The notes under the pieces are model-generated. The model searched no databases. It had not been told where the DNA came from and was given only the letters and a program-made list of their open reading frames with translations. The position numbers were made by a program, and so were the translations under genes. Below are positions 9,974 through 32,991 of a stretch of 64,000 bases of DNA, one piece after another. The stretch is from an uncultured archaeon. GTDB taxonomy: Archaea; Nanohalarchaeota; Nanosalinia; Nanosalinales; Nanoanaerosalinaceae. The first letter of the stretch is position 1. Every line of letters begins with the position of its first letter. The stretch is from positions 9,250-73,249 of the forward strand of contig CAZFEL010000005.1 in the NCBI GenBank assembly GCA_964517675.1. Reading direction: 5' to 3'.

Positions 9974-10792
9974 ATGGTCGCTAGCCAAGAGACTCTGGAT
10001 GCCCTCGAAGACGTAGGACTCAACATGTACGAACGAAAGATCTACGCCGCACTTATCTCGCGTGGCGTCTCCACAGCCGGAGAGCTATCCGAGATGACCG
10101 GCGTCCCACGATCACGATCGTATGACGTTCTCGAGTCACTCGCCGAGAAGGGCTTTGCCATCCTCAAGCCATCCAAGCCGATGCAGTACGTGGCAGTACC
10201 GCCCGAGGAGGCACTCGAGAACAAGAAAGATCTGTACAAGCAGGAACTCGAGGAGAAGATGGACAAGATCGACCGGTTCAAGGAGACCGAAGCGGTCAAC
10301 GAGCTCGAGGGCCTGTACAACGAGGGCGTCGAGCGGGTCGAGCCCGCCGATATGTCCGGCGCAGTCAAGGGACGATACAACGTCCACAAGCACGTCGGCA
10401 ACATGATCCAGGCCGCCGAGGACGAGGTCAAGATCATGACGACCGAAGAAGGCCTCAACAACATCGTCGATAACCACCACGAGCTACTCGAAGAGGCCAA
10501 GGAGGCAGGCGTCAACGTCCGTGTCGCTGCACCTGTCACGGACGACAACGAGGAAGCACACGACCAGCTCAGCGCGGTCGCCGATGTCAGACACGTCGGC
10601 GAGGAGCACCTCGAGCACACACCGGAAGGACGGTTCGTCATCGTGGACGACTCCAAGGTCGCGTTCTCGCTCACCCACGACGACATCCACCCAACACAGG
10701 ACACCGTCTTCTGGTCCGAATCCGACCACGCGGCATCACAGGCCCTCGGCCCGATGTTCGAGATGGTCTGGAACAACGGCCAGCAGCCGTAA
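9974..10792 (+). CDS. TrmB family transcriptional regulator
   Basis: VGLNMYERKIYAALI...VPRSRSYDVLESLAEKG wHTH plus C-terminal effector domain. Confidence 0.9.
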   Translation: MVASQETLDALEDVGLNMYERKIYAALISRGVSTAGELSEMTGVPRSRSYDVLESLAEKGFAILKPSKPMQYVAVPPEEALENKKDLYKQELEEKMDKIDRFKETEAVNELEGLYNEGVERVEPADMSGAVKGRYNVHKHVGNMIQAAEDEVKIMTTEEGLNNIVDNHHELLEEAKEAGVNVRVAAPVTDDNEEAHDQLSAVADVRHVGEEHLEHTPEGRFVIVDDSKVAFSLTHDDIHPTQDTVFWSESDHAASQALGPMFEMVWNNGQQP

Positions 10793-10800
10793 ACCACAGC

Positions 10801-10840
10801 TGAGGCCGTCAGGCCTCACCTCTCTTTCCTTTTCCCCCTC
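10801..10840 (+). terminator. Hairpin plus pyrimidine tract after trmB
   Basis: TGAGGCC-GTCA-GGCCTCA followed by CTCTCTTTCCTTTT. Confidence 0.5.
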
Positions 10841-10863
10841 TCCTCCATCGACGGTGATACCAG

Positions 10864-11463
10864 ATGACTGACTTCTGCATCCAGATTCCCTACACCGTCA
10901 GCGGCGATAAGCTCGAGGAACAGTTCCGCGAATACGCCGAAAACGGCACGGACGGCGACTTCAAGGTCCGGATCACAGACGAGAAGGTCCTCGACTATGA
11001 CCGGCTCCTCGAGAAAGCATCGGATCCCGCAGAGGTCGAGAAGCTCTCCGAGCTCAATGACAGGGACGAACGACAGCTCGAACAGAGCAGCGATAGCTAC
11101 GGTACACCCCCCGACCTCGCGGCCCCGCAGTGGTTCTTCGAGTACAAGGACGGCATCGAGGTCGAGGTACGCACCAAACGGACCGCCTCACTGAAGGACG
11201 CATTCTTCCCACTCAAGACGGAGTTCAGGATCGCACCGGACGAGGAGTACAGCACACTCAACGAGAACACCGGGCGGCTCTACGACGATGACGACATCGA
11301 GGCATTCGAAGACTTTGCAGAAGAGCTCATCGCGGACCTCGGGCTACCATACCACGGCGACGCCGTCACGGAAGATATCCCCGCAGACGACGATGCCGAC
11401 CATCTCCGTTTCAAAGGGCAGATGATGTACGGCAATCCATCTGGCCGCGATTTCCTGTTCTGA
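10864..11463 (+). CDS. Acidic hypothetical protein
   Basis: 199-aa D/E-rich ORF with GGTGA SD-like motif upstream. Confidence 0.75.
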   Translation: MTDFCIQIPYTVSGDKLEEQFREYAENGTDGDFKVRITDEKVLDYDRLLEKASDPAEVEKLSELNDRDERQLEQSSDSYGTPPDLAAPQWFFEYKDGIEVEVRTKRTASLKDAFFPLKTEFRIAPDEEYSTLNENTGRLYDDDDIEAFEDFAEELIADLGLPYHGDAVTEDIPADDDADHLRFKGQMMYGNPSGRDFLF

Positions 11464-17059: not shown

Positions 17060-17533
17060 ATGCCATACGCGACCCATGCCCCCGGTGATGACGGGACGGA
17101 CGAACGGGTCTATGCGACCTCCTGGGACTTCACGTTCAGCGAGGTCCTGCGGGGCGCACTGGGAGGACGACGGCAGATCAACCGCGCCATCCTGGAGTAC
17201 GCGGAGGAGTTCGAGAAGGCAGCACGCGTCCTCGGTGCCGAGAAAAACGGCTCCTACGTGGATGCCTATGACCCGGTGACGGACACCGAGGCCGGGGTCG
17301 AGGACCCCGACGATCTCTACGATGTCCTGATCGATGACGTCGACGTGGAGGACATTGAGGTACAGTATGAGAAAGACGGTGCAGAGCTATCCTTCCGGTA
17401 CGAACGGGCCGCCAGCAAGCCGTTCACGGTCGAGGTCGAAGGCACAGACCTGCTCGGACTGATGGAACAAGAGCTCGGACGCGGTATGGGAGAGAAAGGG
17501 GAAAACGGAGGCCTGCTCGGCTTCCTGGGCTAG
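17060..17533 (+). CDS. Acidic hypothetical protein
   Basis: ATG at 17060, D/E-rich, convergent with eIF5A. Confidence 0.7.
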   Translation: MPYATHAPGDDGTDERVYATSWDFTFSEVLRGALGGRRQINRAILEYAEEFEKAARVLGAEKNGSYVDAYDPVTDTEAGVEDPDDLYDVLIDDVDVEDIEVQYEKDGAELSFRYERAASKPFTVEVEGTDLLGLMEQELGRGMGEKGENGGLLGFLG

Positions 17534-17916
17534 CCCTGATGCTTGCCCTTGACCATCTTGCGGTCGCCGATGACCCAGTAGTTGATCTCCTCGCCCTCTG
17601 AGATACTGAGATCATCCGGCATCTTCATCTCCTCGGTCTCGTAGGTATCCATATCCATGACCTGGGCGATGTCCCCGTCCAGCGAGACGATCTGGCCGAC
17701 CTTCTTATCGACATCGGGGGACATCAGCATCGTATCGCCCGGCTTGGTCACAGTCCGCGTCTGGTCATCGAAGACACCGACCGCCTGGATGCGGTACTTG
17801 GCCGCACCGTGCTTGCCAGGGGCTGACTTCTTCGTTTTACGTACCTTACAGGGTTCGTCCTCAAGGATGATGTAGTCTCCCTTCGAGACACTCTTGGCTT
17901 CGACCTGATGTGGCAT
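17530..17916 (-). CDS. eif5a: Translation factor aIF5A/eIF5A
   Basis: KSAPGKHGAAK hypusine-site motif. Confidence 0.95.
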   Translation of the reverse strand: MPHQVEAKSVSKGDYIILEDEPCKVRKTKKSAPGKHGAAKYRIQAVGVFDDQTRTVTKPGDTMLMSPDVDKKVGQIVSLDGDIAQVMDMDTYETEEMKMPDDLSISEGEEINYWVIGDRKMVKGKHQG

Positions 17917-18017
17917 GCGTTATTACCTCACTGATTACCTCCCGTCCGGTTCTTTTAAAGGTATTCAAGGGGTCGTGGCCGGGGAGATGCGAGAGCAACA
18001 GAGAGAAAAAGAGAGGA

Positions 18018-18303
18018 GATACGCCCTACGAACCCAGGGGTGTGGGGGAAAGGCGTTCTGTGTTGCCTTCCGGGCTCGTAAAGGCAAAGACGCCTGGCGG
18101 CCCACAGAGGGGCCGCCTGACGCGGGGATGAGGGCGACCTGCTGCAGGGAGGCCGTCCGCAGGACTCGGGGGAGACCTGCATCCGGCCATCTCCTGCCAG
18201 CGCGGGGATACCGCACTGTCGGGGGAAGCCTGTCGCCCTAATATAGGTTTCGTGGGGGGAACCATATCCGGTCAGCGGGCGTCCCTGCCTGAAAGGGCGT
18301 ATC
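18018..18303. ncRNA. Unassigned structured non-coding RNA candidate (about 286 nt)
   Basis: 10-bp terminal stem GATACGCCCT/AGGGCGTATC enclosing at least five hairpins; no acidic ORF in the roughly 500-bp gap; family not recognised. Confidence 0.55.
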
Positions 18304-18417
18304 CCGGCGGTCGTACCGCCATATAGGCCCGCGGGTGTTGGCCCGAGGCCGGTGTGGGGTTGCAGGCACATGGCCTGACTACCATGGGGCGGGCGTGGTG
18401 CCCGCCCTACCATAGGT

Positions 18418-19491
18418 TCATTGCTGTTTGATGACCTTCAGGCCGAGATCGTCCATGTCCTTCACATCGGCCTCCTCGCTGCCCTGTTCCTGGGGCCCGA
18501 GGACGTAGGGTGACTCGACACCGGTGATGATCGAGATGACCTGAACCTTGCCCTCCAGTTCCTCATTGATCCGGGCGCCCCAGATGACCTGGGCCTGTGG
18601 GTCCAGCTTCTCGATGACCGTCTGGCCGATGTCATTGATCTCATTGAGGGACAGTCCCTCGCCACCTTCGACGTGGACAAGGGCACCGTTCGATCCCTCG
18701 AAGTCGACATCCAGGAGCGGGTTGGACAGGGCCTCTGCGATGGCCTCCTTGCCCTTGTTCCTGGTGTCGGACTCTCCGTAGCCTACCACAGCGACACCTC
18801 CGGAATGCATGATGGCCTTGACGTCTGCGTAATCCAGGTTGACCAGGGACGGCTTCGAGATCGTCTCGGTGACGCCTTTGATCATCGTCGTGATCAGCTC
18901 ATCAGCGACACCGAACGCCTGGTCGAGGGGCATGTCCCCTGCGATGTCGATCAGCTTGTCGTTCTCGATGACGATCGCCGTATCGACGAACTCCCGGAGC
19001 CGGACAAGCCCGTCCTCCGCCTTGGATTTCCTCGCACCCTCGATCTGGAACGGCATCGTGACCGTCCCGATGACGATGCAGTCCTCGCTTTTCGCGATGT
19101 CGGCAAGGACAGGGATGGCACCGGTGCCGGTACCGCCTCCAAGACCCGCACAGAGGAACACCATATCAGCGTCAGCAAACAGAGAACGGAGCTCTGAGCG
19201 GTTCTCTTCGGCAGCCTTGGCGCCTTTCTCAGGATGGCCTCCGGCACCGAGTCCCCGGGTGAGGTCCTGTCCGATCAGGATCTTCCGGTCAGCGTTGGAC
19301 ATCTTCAGGTGCTGCTTGTCCGTGTTGACCGCAAGGGTCTCGGCACCGGCAACGTTTTTGTTCTGCATACGCGTTATCATGTTGTTGCCGGCTCCCCCGA
19401 TCCCGACGACAAGGATCTTGGCATCTTTTACGTCGTCAAACTGGTTTGTGTCGTGGTCTTCATCCGCCGCGTCTTCGATGATCGCATTCAT
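18418..19491 (-). CDS. ftsZ: Cell division protein FtsZ (FtsZ2-like)
   Basis: GIGGAGNN, NTDKQHL, GLGAGG, GGGTGTG tubulin signature, NLDYAD. Confidence 0.97.
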   Translation of the reverse strand: MNAIIEDAADEDHDTNQFDDVKDAKILVVGIGGAGNNMITRMQNKNVAGAETLAVNTDKQHLKMSNADRKILIGQDLTRGLGAGGHPEKGAKAAEENRSELRSLFADADMVFLCAGLGGGTGTGAIPVLADIAKSEDCIVIGTVTMPFQIEGARKSKAEDGLVRLREFVDTAIVIENDKLIDIAGDMPLDQAFGVADELITTMIKGVTETISKPSLVNLDYADVKAIMHSGGVAVVGYGESDTRNKGKEAIAEALSNPLLDVDFEGSNGALVHVEGGEGLSLNEINDIGQTVIEKLDPQAQVIWGARINEELEGKVQVISIITGVESPYVLGPQEQGSEEADVKDMDDLGLKVIKQQ

Positions 19492-19580
19492 TGTGCTATC
19501 TCCTCTCGGACAGGTGGACTCCACTACAACAATCTTTTTGTGTGTGGCACATCCACCTACTACTGCCCTTGGTCGGTTAG

Positions 19581-19776
19581 AAGAACTCTAATCGATCTAT
19601 ATTTCGATATGGTTGACTCTGGTTGATCAGAAGTTGCCCAACTCTGGTCGACGTACCCATTGATTCACGTCCTGGATCGTGCCCGCGATCCAAAGTGAAT
19701 CGAACCATGAAACGTTGTAAGCCCAAATCGGAAGTCCGATCAAGTTCGTGTGCCCGCACGAACCAATCGAGTTCTT
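19581..19776 (-). promoter_or_regulatory. Structured leader/ncRNA upstream of ftsZ with repeated YGGGCA-loop hairpins
   Basis: 8-bp closing stem 19581-19588/19769-19776; three hairpins with the same hexaloop; TTTATATA box about 25 nt upstream on the minus strand. Confidence 0.5.
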
Positions 19777-31977: not shown

Positions 31978-32328
31978 GCTCGTTCCTCGCTGGCCGGGGG
32001 AGATAGGATGGAAGGGAAAAAATCGGATGGTATCGCGGCGGTATCAGGCGGGATCGTCGGGCGGGCGGTGCCCGCGGTCGGTGGCCTGTGCGGGCATGAT
32101 GTGGCGTCCTCCCTCCGTGCCGAGAACGGGATGGTACCGCGGGTTTGGTCCGTCAGGTGCCGCCGTCCGCCGGTGTTCCGTGGTCTGGACCATCGTGTCG
32201 TACCTGTACATCAATAGTGTCGTACCCGTGAAGTATGTTGGACGACAGTAGATGTCACCACTGTGCGCACACCGGTCCGGCCACAAAGCATAAATGGGTC
32301 AGCCCCGCTGGGGTTACTACGACAGTGT

Positions 32329-32475
32329 GCCCGGGTGGCCGGATCCGGCGAACCGTCTGCGGTTCGACCGGTCGAGAAACCGCCAGGTTTTGACGGAGCC
32401 ACCCGGCGACAGCACCCACACAATGCCCGGGTGGGGGAGAACACGCACCTATCGGTGCTCAATCCGCTCACCCGG
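32329..32475 (+). repeat. Two hairpins, each beginning with the tRNA-Ser 5' decamer GCCCGGGTGG
   Basis: Decamer at 32329, 32425 and 32501; stems 32331-32339/32398-32406 and 32427-32433/32469-32475. Confidence 0.7.
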
Positions 32476-32500
32476 AAAAATTCACAAGGAAAAGAGCAAT

Positions 32501-32690
32501 GCCCGGGTGGCGGAGTCTGGCCCATCGCGGCGGATTCGAGCCTTGTATCGTCCTCGAACGCTGACGGTCGCAACCACGACCGGATGATCTCACGAGGAAC
32601 CCGTCACGTCCCTATATCAACGTCACAGGGGCGGCAAGCTAATTATCCGTTGGGCGTGAGCCCTCGCAGGTTCAAATCCTGCCCCGGGCG
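32501..32690 (+). tRNA. tRNA-Ser(CGA) with 104-nt intron at position 37/38
   Basis: Acceptor GCCCGGG/CCCGGGC, G73, anticodon stem GCGGA/TCCGT, long variable arm, T-arm GCAGG-TTCAAAT-CCTGC; CCA not encoded. Confidence 0.92.
32541..32644 (+). other. tRNA intron with relaxed bulge-helix-bulge junction and internal K-turn
   Basis: CTTG/CAAG outer helix, TTCG/CTAA central helix (one mismatch), CTGA-CGGTCG..CGACCG-GAT-GA. Confidence 0.8.
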
Positions 32691-32778
32691 CTCGCAGTTT
32701 CGCGAGGAGAAACAGACGGTTCGCTCCGCGAACCGACTAGAAAGATTCGCCTTCTCGCCGAGAAGCCTCGTATCAGAC

Positions 32779-32794
32779 CCTGCCCCGGGCGCTC
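32779..32794 (+). repeat. Duplicated tRNA-Ser 3' end (att-like); a more degenerate copy lies at 32921-32939
   Basis: CCTGCCCCGGGCGCTC is identical to 32678-32693; GTTCAACTCCTGCCCCTGG matches the T-arm at 17/19. Confidence 0.85.
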
Positions 32795-32991
32795 CAAGTC
32801 TTCCGGAGTACTCCCAAATCACAGATCTGGTGCGGACCTAGCACCCTCCGGTTGCGAGTAAAAGAGAAGGGCTGTCCTCCGGACACCCCGACAGAACGTT
32901 CCTCCCGCGTGACTGTAGGCGTTCAACTCCTGCCCCTGGTTTCAGTCTGGTACACAACTATAATATAGCCGCATCAAGCACCCATGTAATA

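Follow-up and report, generated by a model that had tools for sequence, protein, structure and literature searches.

A conserved, covarying RNA with C-run loops lies directly behind ftsZ in nanohaloarchaea

The gap between ftsZ and eIF5A in the window, the whole 64-kb stretch of DNA analysed here, holds a real, conserved and highly folded RNA behind ftsZ. The element covers about 17999-18417 on the minus strand, the strand of ftsZ and eIF5A, and its approximately 420 nt begin at the stop codon of ftsZ and end in a T-rich tract just ahead of a separate eIF5A promoter. It has a covarying structure read from one defined strand, conserved loops and an exclusive link to the 3′ end of ftsZ, and in related archaea a G5 run in the ftsZ Shine-Dalgarno (SD) region co-occurs with a C5 loop behind the gene. 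The element is likely the ftsZ 3′UTR, possibly processed into a stable RNA. Our best explanation, with a probability of about 45%, is that this 3′UTR RNA acts through pairing of its C-runs with G-runs and thereby sets ftsZ expression. To our knowledge, the regulation of FtsZ and the timing of division in archaea, especially in the tiny symbiotic DPANN lineages, are largely unexplained, and we know of almost no conserved regulatory RNAs defined for DPANN archaea.

The segment 18010-18310 had a predicted fold of -162 kcal/mol for 301 nt, and its folding energy gave a z-score of -7.8 on the minus strand versus -3.7 on the plus strand, with no shuffle equalling the native fold. The sense strand is 38% C and 28% G, with 10 runs of at least four C and no run of at least four G. 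The 10 C-runs were conserved, and most of them were unpaired in the predicted fold. The minus strand could be assigned as the sense strand because three G.U pairs in the P2 helix (GGCAGGGACGCC/GGCGUCUUUGCC) would turn into A.C mismatches if read from the plus strand; in the related locus L001 the same helix is perfect G-C. Four small hairpins follow the stop codon, and behind them lies a core, closed by P1 and P2, that contains three arms and a 3′ hairpin and is multi-branched rather than rod-like (Table 1). A protein-coding gap was rejected, since the four ORFs in it had no Pfam match and indels relative to L001 were not multiples of three and broke the reading frame; the predicted products were basic and proline-rich. 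A repeat or mobile element was ruled out because the window contains a single copy.

Table 1. Features of the RNA behind ftsZ and of the flanking genes, in window coordinates
Feature	Position	Strand	Remark
Hairpin H0, GGGCGGGC ACCAC GCCCGCCC	18387..18407	-	GC-rich, 10 nt past the ftsZ stop codon
Hairpin H1, CAGGC-CAUGU-GCCUG, then single-stranded CAACCCCACAC	18352..18377	-	First C-run
Hairpins H2 (GGCCUCGGG...CCCGCGGGCC) and H3 (GGCGGU ACG ACCGCC)	18306..18350	-	
P1, 5′ strand, GGGAUACGCCC	18295..18305	-	Partner 18016-18026; the terminal stem of the earlier note, extended
P1, 3′ strand, GGGCGUAUCUC	18016..18026	-	
P2, 5′ strand, GGCAGGGACGCC	18278..18289	-	Long-range, partner 18083-18094; G.U to G-C changes
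P2, 3′ strand, GGCGUCUUUGCC	18083..18094	-	
Arm A hairpin, AUAUGGUU-CCCCCCACGA-AACCUAUAU	18241..18267	-	
Arm B, GGGCGAC...GUCGCCC	18132..18238	-	Helices with compensatory changes
Arm B, unpaired C-run CUUCCCCCGAC	18218-18228	-	
Arm B, hairpin CAGUGCGG-UAUCC-CCGCGCUG	18198-18218	-	
Arm B, hairpin GCAGGUCUC-CCCC-GAGUCCUGC	18159-18180	-	
Junction CAUCCCCGCGUCA and arm C hairpin GGCGGCCC-CUCUGU-GGGCCGCC	18096..18130	-	Junction conserved
3′ hairpin D, ACGAGCCC...GGGUUCGU	18028..18079	-	Large loop with CCUUUCCCCCACACCCC (18037-18053); three compensatory pairs
Pyrimidine/T-rich tail CUCCUCUCUUUUUCUCUCUG	17999..18018	-	T-rich tract behind the element in every relative
ftsZ coding sequence	18418..19491	-	Likely start ATG at 19491, 357 aa as in relatives
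ftsZ SD region GAGAGGAGAUA	19497..19507	-	5 nt ahead of the ATG
TATA-like ACAAAAAGATTG upstream of ftsZ	19530-19541	-	
G5 run in the ftsZ codons for GG of GIGGAG, mRNA AUCGGGGGAGCC	19394..19398	-	Candidate partner
eIF5A TATA box TTTAAAAG	17952..17959	-	Downstream of the T-tract, conserved in relatives
eIF5A	17530-17916	-	

An earlier note on this DNA had drawn a multi-hairpin RNA of about 290 nt inside a perfect 10-bp terminal stem (18018-18027/18294-18303). The stem is there, but conservation begins at the ftsZ stop (18417) and takes in 18304-18417 as well. The note had not committed itself to a strand. The inner pairing GGCGGCCC/GGGCCGCC, the AGGGCGAC/GTCGCCCT arm, the duplicated CGCCCTA...GTGGGGG unit, the pyrimidine tract behind the stem on the minus strand and the hairpin at 18387-18407, with its CTACCAT(G/A)GG direct repeats, were all found as the note had described them. 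Its TTGCCTT/AAGGCAA pairing can be drawn in the window, but the local hairpin is not conserved, AAGGCAA being deleted in L001; the conserved alternative is the long-range helix of 18278-18289 with 18083-18094.

The RNA also covaries among ftsZ-linked relatives; covariation was a check that the same note had named. In an alignment of three close sequences, the window and two relatives, among them a 70%-identical one (Ca. Asbonarchaeum), 92% of the cells could pair, compared to about 40% when the partners were slid. Compensatory double changes occurred at 17 pairs versus 5.6 ± 2.0 in shuffles (none of 500 reached the observed number) and at 0-3 pairs after sliding. Beyond the changes listed in Table 1, H2 showed three compensatory pairs relative to L001, P1 showed one compensatory and three one-sided changes relative to its relatives, and in L001 a compensatory change had turned one G-C pair of the arm C hairpin into A-U. 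A terminal helix equivalent to P1, adjoining the T-tract, was present in every subfamily.

The loops behaved differently from the stems. The window and L001 share identical loop sequences on altered stems, and the C-run loops were the most conserved parts of the element. At the position of H0, which is followed by a conserved CCAUG(G/U)UAG, the loci L001, L081 and L087 have a hairpin with a different stem sequence. The arrangement of H1, a hairpin followed by CAACCCCC(C)AC, was retained in L001 and L081, and the arm A loop motif UUCCCCCCAC was invariant in L086 and L001. The junction and arm C together form a module, CCCUNAYCCCCGCGUCAGG-hairpin, that was recognisable in L081 too. The loop motif of hairpin D, CCUUYCCCCC(C)ACAC, was also displayed in L081, L003 and L027, there on stems that differ considerably, and recurred as CUUUCCCCCUGCC in L002 and L170. 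Across the family, MAFFT aligned the loop motif only and not the stems; the motif was retained while hairpins turned over quickly.

In 20 nanohaloarchaeal elements, 83% of the C-run positions were unpaired in the predicted fold, compared to 46% of all positions, and 42 of 99 hairpins had at least four consecutive C in the loop. The loop consensus was UUCCCCC(C)ACA, with YCCCCCGA as a further form, so that one short motif was repeated across many unpaired loops, as is found in multi-site decoy RNAs. Poly-C tracts reached 9-11 nt in L016 and L023. These features bear on the idea of a passive 3′-end structure, in which a GC-rich 3′UTR and terminator shield the ftsZ mRNA from 3′ exonucleases and the C-runs are incidental. 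The very stable fold, the T-tract that is always present at the end and the poor conservation of the architecture between subfamilies would fit such a structure. However, the C-run loops stayed the same while the stems drifted, and C5 runs are otherwise depleted: TYCCCCC was found 13 times in the genome versus 34 expected, with 4 of the 13 inside the element. The runs persisted even where the genome has 37-42% GC and such tracts are extremely rare, and the 3′ flanks of other genes were without them. We therefore consider a passive role improbable.

The association with ftsZ became apparent when the loci were anchored on that gene. A homologue search anchored on eIF5A found DNA similarity to the gap in L001 and L086 only, and the element looked narrowly distributed until the loci were re-anchored on ftsZ. 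The related loci came from an ftsZ-anchored metagenome scan and from exact-protein look-ups, the latter supplying the closest relatives. In every nanohaloarchaeal locus fetched, a multi-hairpin C-loop region lay directly 3′ of ftsZ, whatever gene came next. This fast-evolving element was 150-430 nt long, started about 10-25 nt past the ftsZ stop and ended at the T-tract; the P1-closed cores ranged from 106 to 292 nt and differed in hairpin number and order between sister lineages. At least two C5 runs within 300 nt past the stop were found for 16 of 17 ftsZ genes, while only 2 of 245 other ORFs had as many in their 3′ flank, both of them artefacts. In Woesearchaeota-type relatives the element was reduced to one hairpin past the ftsZ stop, its loop made of C5-6. 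No conserved promoter was seen for the element, and the TATA-like CCTATATGG (18319-18327) inside the element was not conserved among them. The tail CUCCUCUCUUUUUCUCUCUG is a likely archaeal oligo-T terminator. From this arrangement we infer that the element is co-transcribed with ftsZ.

The earlier note had also offered a switch-like leader for eIF5A. The RNA does precede eIF5A on their common strand, both in the window and in several relatives. However, the terminator-like T-rich tract intervenes, and the TATA box TTTAAAAG downstream of that tract indicates that eIF5A has its own promoter. L001 has an additional ORF of about 105 aa between the RNA and eIF5A, nanohaloarchaea with histone-eIF5A synteny have no such RNA upstream of eIF5A, and ftsZ keeps its C-loop RNA in front of unrelated genes where eIF5A was not seen downstream. 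A leader or riboswitch for eIF5A is thus contradicted, and we give it next to no credence.

A second proposal of that note, a highly divergent housekeeping RNA that merely adjoins ftsZ, fared no better. Archaeal SRP RNA has a long helix 5, a helix 6 and a helix 8 with a GNAR tetraloop and an AGG/AGCA symmetric loop, and archaeal RNase P RNA has a P4 pseudoknot formed by CR-I and CR-V. The P1-closed core of about 290 nt with its terminal 5′/3′ helix resembles SRP RNA, and the CCCGGAAGG segment (18066-18074) is loosely like the helix 8 apex. Against this, the segment was deleted in L001, as was the sole GGAA-containing segment, CCCGGAAGGCAAC (within 18062-18074), there was no long helix 5, and the pyrimidine-rich sense strand was without the purine motifs CR-I (GAGGAAAGUCC) and CR-V (ACAGAA..GGCUUA). 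Sister lineages differed in the helices of the core and in its length (106-292 nt), the element ranged from a single hairpin in other DPANN archaea to about 430 nt, and it was always attached to ftsZ. The covariance models RNaseP_arch and Archaea_SRP gave no match to the window at the gathering score, nor to 17850-18480 at E ≤ 10 on either strand; the note had not found the signatures of either RNA. An SRP or RNase P RNA is accordingly hard to credit at all. A search of both strands against Rfam 15 gave no significant match to the element, and the window and 20 related loci yielded nothing beyond tRNAs at the gathering score. The remaining suggestion of the note, a new class of non-coding RNA, was supported: the element is structured, covarying, syntenically conserved and absent from Rfam 15.

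Selection on the DNA itself, through origin G-strings, a recombination site or phase-variable poly-C tracts, was also considered. The plus-strand motifs read GTGGGGG(G)AA, which we take to resemble the G-strings of archaeal ORB elements, and the 9-11-nt poly-C tracts mentioned above could point the same way. However, the motifs all have one orientation, neither an AT-rich unwinding region nor a neighbouring orc1/cdc6 gene was present, and the motifs lie in loops of covarying hairpins. The covarying stems, together with G.U pairs that are valid on one strand only, indicate selection on RNA, and a DNA-level element is very improbable.

An indication of a pairing partner came from outside the nanohaloarchaea. 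In 20 Woesearchaeota-type loci, a G5 run was present at -22 to -4 of 19 ftsZ genes compared to 0 of about 100 other real ORFs, so that ftsZ alone has a G5-6 SD in loci where a C5-6 hairpin loop follows its stop codon. When 67 loci were counted with kinship ignored, 20 had both the G-run and the C-run, 29 had neither, 13 had the C-run only and 5 the G-run only (Fisher p = 1.3e-4), and the opposite-polarity controls occurred in 4/67 and 3/67. Since the C5-6 loop matches an SD that is private to ftsZ, it would mimic the anti-SD and compete with the ribosome. The multiplication of this module in nanohaloarchaea suggests a multivalent or trans action.

For the window, we propose that the ftsZ transcript would extend 3′ as the folded minus-strand RNA of about 420 nt, whose scaffold would hold about eight to ten C-runs single-stranded. 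The RNA is without any G-run that could sequester them. The C-runs might pair with G-rich partners, chiefly the ftsZ mRNA, and this pairing may set the translation or stability of ftsZ. That the RNA works by base pairing, and that it has a target in the genome of the window, is deduced from sequence. The candidate partner is the G5 run at 19394-19398, which matches the loops at 18218-18228 and 18163-18175 over 8-9 complementary nt. It involves GGG at one synonymous glycine site, used in 9 of 12 ftsZ genes of the clade of the window, where this triplet accounts for just 3-17% of glycine codons. The run was missing in subfamily C, no covariation of complementarity beyond C5:G5 was seen in L002 and L170, and an AT-rich nanohaloarchaeal clade had no G5 run anywhere in the ftsZ mRNA.

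The nanohaloarchaeal ftsZ SD is GAGGAGAUA, without a G-run. The C-runs of the window had no complementarity to its ftsZ SD GAGAGGAGAUA; only UAUCUCCUCUC (18011-18021), which overlaps the tail, is an exact reverse complement of the SD region, and this 11-nt complementarity was not kept in L001 or L081. In RNAduplex comparisons of the ftsZ 5′UTR with the 3′ RNA at nine nanohaloarchaeal loci, pairing was no better than in shuffles (z from -1.2 to +1.3). In a crude set of about 50 gene calls from the window, no G-run SD was convincing, and many genes looked leaderless. A G6-7 run in the 3′UTR of a 94-aa gene was rejected as a target, as it occurred at 3 of 19 loci only and the gene is absent from the window. 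The ftsZ ORF as listed starts with a GTG at 19524.

The main rival to pairing is a scaffold or sponge, in which the C-runs bind a poly(C)-binding protein, for example one with a KH domain, and the bound protein stabilises or localises the ftsZ mRNA or is itself titrated. We judge this rather unlikely, though it has several points in its favour: there are 8-10 similar loop motifs per RNA and the hairpins turn over fast, a pattern that decoy RNAs typically show, the nanohaloarchaea yielded no convincing conserved partner RNA, and the conserved flanks (UU before the C-run and ACA after it) exceed the needs of a G5 partner. The element would then resemble the C-rich 3′UTR element of alpha-globin, which is bound by alphaCP. 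However, no candidate protein was found, and at the loci compared no gene consistently adjoined the element as an RNA-binding-protein candidate. A scaffold also leaves unexplained why ftsZ alone has a G5-6 SD together with a single C5-6 loop in Woesearchaeota-type loci. One loop would be sufficient for cis control, and eight to ten fit a sponge or protein scaffold at least as well.

If C-run/G-run pairing is accepted, a wider reading can be put forward, more tentatively: Woesearchaeota/Nanoarchaeota and Nanohaloarchaeota would share a dedicated and so far undescribed post-transcriptional control of ftsZ, in which the mRNA has a private, orthogonal pair made of a ribosome-binding site with a G-run and, in the gene's own 3′UTR, an anti-SD mimic with a C-run. 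In nanohaloarchaea the module would have expanded to a 150-430-nt RNA with many C-loops, perhaps set free as a stable regulator that links ftsZ expression with further G-run targets or titrates a factor. If this is true, no earlier family of conserved cis-regulatory RNAs would have been tied to cell division in archaea. The pairing model, if true, would extend 3′UTR/5′UTR anti-SD control from Staphylococcus to archaea and provide a marker RNA family for genome annotation. In at least two DPANN phyla the element goes with one and the same essential gene, and the proposed sequence logic, C-runs against G-runs, is simple and mutable. With its clear boundaries, it is directly testable in the available nanohaloarchaeon-haloarchaeon co-cultures.

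A literature search found no description of an ftsZ 3′UTR or a C-loop RNA in archaea. The closest known system is the icaR 3′UTR of S. aureus, in which a UCCCC motif complementary to the gene's own SD controls translation and decay (PMC3868564). The Woesearchaeota-type ftsZ genes resemble it in layout, since a G5-6 SD precedes their start and a C5-6 loop follows their stop; for the window, the position of the element between the ftsZ stop and the T-tract would fit such a 3′UTR. Unlike the bacterial icaR, the element is archaeal and without sequence homology to it, the ftsZ SD in the lineage of the window is without a G-run, and about 10 C-runs would be displayed on a 420-nt scaffold. Conserved hairpin loops, several in each RNA, that present C-runs for pairing with G-rich or SD sequences of mRNAs are also found in 6C, with its C-rich loops (PMC6486639), in RsaE/RoxS and other Rsa RNAs (PMC2790875) and in sX13. 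In contrast to the element, which is physically attached to ftsZ, these bacterial sRNAs are encoded in trans and measure 60-120 nt. The window scored 15.5 bits against sX13 (RF02232; E = 1.9, gathering score 50) and did not match 6C (RF01066) at E ≤ 10, so the element is a member of neither family.

DicF, a prophage-encoded trans sRNA, represses ftsZ translation in E. coli by Hfq-dependent pairing with the ribosome-binding region. The RNA control of division through pairing with the ftsZ mRNA that we propose would be similar, but DicF has no C-run motif, no homology to the element and no linkage to ftsZ. In reporter genes of Haloferax volcanii, 3′UTRs and 5′UTRs reportedly determine translational regulation jointly, according to Brenneis and Soppa in 2009. 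This interplay is an archaeal precedent, but no motif or structure was defined and there is no connection to ftsZ or DPANN archaea. CsrB/RsmZ are 100-350-nt multi-hairpin decoys that are encoded by independent genes and present a GGA motif in many loops to their partner CsrA; we know of no CsrA in archaea. The motif of the element is instead a C-run, and it is attached to ftsZ, but as in CsrB/RsmZ a short motif is repeated in many loops and the number of hairpins changes fast between lineages.

The 3′ end of ftsZ in the window carries a conserved, structured RNA, and this element is real. The window has a GC content of 61% and comes from a nanohaloarchaeon (DPANN); the best matches of its eIF5A and FtsZ were Candidatus Nanohaloarchaea MAGs, and the nearest species-level genome was Ca. 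Asbonarchaeum danakilense (locus L001), with 87% identity for eIF5A and 93% for FtsZ. Most of the stems and repeats listed in the earlier note were found where it had placed them (I1, I3, I4, I6, I14, I19, D6, D7, D10). The minus-strand fold reached −162.5 kcal/mol (z = −7.8), far beyond chance, and the plus-strand fold was weaker relative to chance (z = −3.7). The counterpart in L001 was 70% identical (nhmmer E = 3e-36), and that in a second relative, L086, was near-identical to the window. When the three sequences were aligned, the C-rich loops were invariant and the stems changed with compensation. RNAalifold predicted 127 pairs, and the 17 with double compensatory changes compared to 5.6 ± 2.0 in shuffles (0/500) and 0–3 when slid, bearing out on three sequences the covariation proposed as a check. 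In a counting test on the same alignment, 92% of the cells paired compared to about 40% with slid partners. In a long-range helix, G·U pairs of the window were G–C pairs in L001, and therefore the sense strand is the minus strand. This helix superseded the local TTGCCTT/AAGGCAA hairpin proposed earlier, which was partly deleted in L001. The conserved region starts at the ftsZ stop codon, and the sense strand of the element, which is single-copy within the window, contains ten runs of at least four C and no run of at least four G.

Features of the ftsZ–eIF5A locus and of the tRNA region (window positions)
Feature	Position	Strand	Sequence	Remark
eIF5A	17530–17916	minus		
Gap between ftsZ and eIF5A	17917–18417			501 nt
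eIF5A TATA box	17952–17959	minus	TTTAAAAG	conserved; after T-tract
3′ end of conservation	17999–18018	minus		pyrimidine and T-rich tract
Tail	18011–18021		UAUCUCCUCUC	
Long-range helix	18278–18289 / 18083–18094	minus	GGCAGGGACGCC / GGCGUCUUUGCC	
C-loop	18163–18173		UCUCCCCCGAG	hairpin 18159–18180
C-loop	18218–18228		CUUCCCCCGAC	
5′ order of element (H0 and H1, first hairpins after ftsZ stop)	H0 18387–18407	minus	CAACCCCACAC (with H1)	H0, CCAUG, H1 plus sequence
Candidate partner, G5 run	19394–19398		mRNA AUCGGGGGAGCC	ftsZ codons, GG of GIGGAG
ftsZ	ATG 19491	minus		probable start
ftsZ Shine-Dalgarno (SD)	19497–19507	minus	GAGAGGAGAUA	without G-run
Motif upstream of ftsZ TATA box	~19555–19585	minus	TTCTAACCGAC...GGGCAGTAGTAGG	
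Duplicate of tRNA 5′ start	32421–32433		ATGCCCGGGTGG	
tRNA	32501–32690	plus		~108-nt intron, long variable arm
Duplicate of tRNA 3′ end	32779–32795		CCTGCCCCGGGCGCTC	

The check for a known RNA with Rfam 15 over the whole window returned nothing for the element at the gathering score. Scanning the gap at E ≤ 10 gave noise only, with sX13 as the best thematic match (15.5 bits, E = 1.9), and 20 related ftsZ loci gave no family for their 3′ elements. The ORFs of the gap had zero Pfam matches. RNase P RNA and SRP RNA were rejected as identities, and the element was found neither in Rfam nor in a search of the accessible literature. The alternative that the RNA is a leader of eIF5A did not hold, as its T-tract is followed by a conserved TATA box and the eIF5A SD. 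This reading was also rejected because in L001 an extra ORF of ~105 aa separates the RNA from the eIF5A promoter, and because no such RNA lies upstream of eIF5A in the nanohaloarchaeal clade with the histone–eIF5A order. The extra ORF (L001:3640–3970), which is absent from the window, has a coiled-coil N-terminus and two hydrophobic segments and looks like a membrane protein.

Every nanohaloarchaeal ftsZ locus fetched had a multi-hairpin region of 150–430 nt directly after the ftsZ stop on the sense strand, with 2–6 runs of at least five C and a T-tract at its end; background sequence had no more than 0.3 of these runs per 350 nt. The element was carried by the loci with ftsZ–eIF5A synteny (L001–L003, L016, L023, L027, L081/82, L086–88, L170, L175) and by an AT-rich clade (L090–L097, among the matches listed in an ftsZ-anchored metagenome scan), where the gene downstream of ftsZ differs. 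At least two C5 runs were found in the 300-nt 3′ flank of 16 of 17 ftsZ genes; of the 245 remaining ORFs in these loci that were 150 aa or longer, 228 had none, 15 had one and two had at least two (both artefacts). The motif TYCCCCC was depleted in the window, with 13 copies where 34 were expected; the element itself contained four of these copies. Between the same-strand genes 9974–10792 and 10864–11463, a C5 run also occurs in a pyrimidine tract (CUCUUUCCUUUUCCCCCUCUCCUCC, 10820–10850, plus strand), which resembles the tail of the element but is a single unstructured instance.

Common to the elements were a terminal helix adjoining the T-tract, 2–7 hairpins or junctions exposing C-runs, and a loop consensus. 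Loops of the window's clade follow UUCCCCC(C)ACA(C), those of the AT-rich clade CCCCUCCCCCC. The subfamilies differed in stems, hairpin number and size, with cores closed by the terminal helix P1 spanning 106–292 nt. When 20 elements were folded in silico, 83% of the positions in C-runs were left unpaired, compared to 46% of all positions, and 42 of 99 hairpins had a C-run in the loop.

A simpler arrangement was found among the scan matches listed, in loci whose FtsZ was 54–60% identical to the query and whose nearest named proteins were from Ca. Woesearchaeota and Nanoarchaeota archaea. Most had one C5–6-loop hairpin just past the ftsZ stop, then a second hairpin and a T-run, and their ftsZ had a G5–6 run 7–13 nt before the ATG, at the SD position; other genes in these loci had, for example, GAGGUG-type SDs. 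When positions −22 to −4 were compared across 20 of these loci, a G5 run preceded 19 ftsZ genes, two spurious antisense ORFs and none of ~100 other ORFs. Among 67 loci, 20 had both G-run and C-run, 29 neither, 13 only the C-run and five only the G-run (Fisher p = 1.3e-4, kinship ignored), and opposite-polarity controls gave 4/67 and 3/67. The layout is the same as in the S. aureus icaR mRNA, in which a UCCCC motif of the 3′UTR pairs with the SD of the same transcript (PMC3868564), and the loops of the ftsZ 3′ element match the C-rich-loop logic of bacterial sRNAs (6C; PMC6486639). Control of ftsZ by C-run/G-run pairing is thus well supported in these simple DPANN relatives. In L104 and L111–L114, the second (terminator) hairpin, ~60–100 nt past the ftsZ stop, holds a perfect GAGGUGA that looks like an SD but is not followed by a start codon, so several of these 3′UTRs combine a C-run with an SD-like sequence.

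Because position and motif are homologous, the window RNA would be an expanded nanohaloarchaeal form of the same ftsZ 3′UTR element, whose C-runs would pair with G-runs and control ftsZ. For the window genome we only infer such control. The tail is an exact complement of the ftsZ SD that is not kept in relatives, and predicted duplexes between the SD region and the 3′ RNA were not significant. A candidate partner is a G5 run in the ftsZ codons for GIGGAG. The GGG codon at this site was kept in 9 of 12 clade genes, although GGG makes up only 3–17% of glycine codons. Its share was the highest of 35 invariant glycine columns, and genomes with a GC3 of 39–47% are included. Both C-loops in the table have 8–9 nt of complementarity to the G5 site, as do loops in L001 and L081. 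Subfamily C lacks this complementarity, in L002 and L170 it stops at C5:G5, and the AT-rich clade has zero G5 runs in its ftsZ mRNA. Since the loops are many, serious alternatives to pairing with ftsZ are that the RNA acts in trans or as a sponge, or that a poly(C)-binding protein is the partner of the C-loops. In another nanohaloarchaeal clade, the 3′UTR of a conserved 94-aa gene, absent from the window, has a G5–7 run just before a T-rich terminator in three of 19 loci with the gene (L021:6870–6930, L022:6970–7030, L068:7540–7590), which could be a C-loop partner.

The mechanical ORF of ftsZ begins at GTG 19524 (minus strand), but the 357-aa relatives and the placement of the SD point instead to the ATG as the start. 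This SD is preceded on the minus strand by a small hairpin (GUGGAGUCCAC), probably within a short 5′UTR. Both nanohaloarchaeal clades conserve the motif that precedes the ftsZ TATA box (window, L001, L081, L087, L090–L097). Its version in the AT-rich relatives is TTCTAAGGTAGAATTA, and a transcription factor of ftsZ may bind there.

The tRNA in the table scored 33.5 bits in a permissive Rfam scan and was missed by ARAGORN and by the gathering-threshold scan. Both of its ends are duplicated, and 32421–32800 (plus strand) may hold a second tRNA copy, either with an intron or degenerate. No convincing ORF was seen in the ~1 kb around it (31978–32991). From an unquantified impression of ~50 crude gene calls, several window genes have a TATA-like box ~30 nt before the ATG without an SD, which suggests leaderless transcripts; few genes have clear SDs, ftsZ and eIF5A being two of them.
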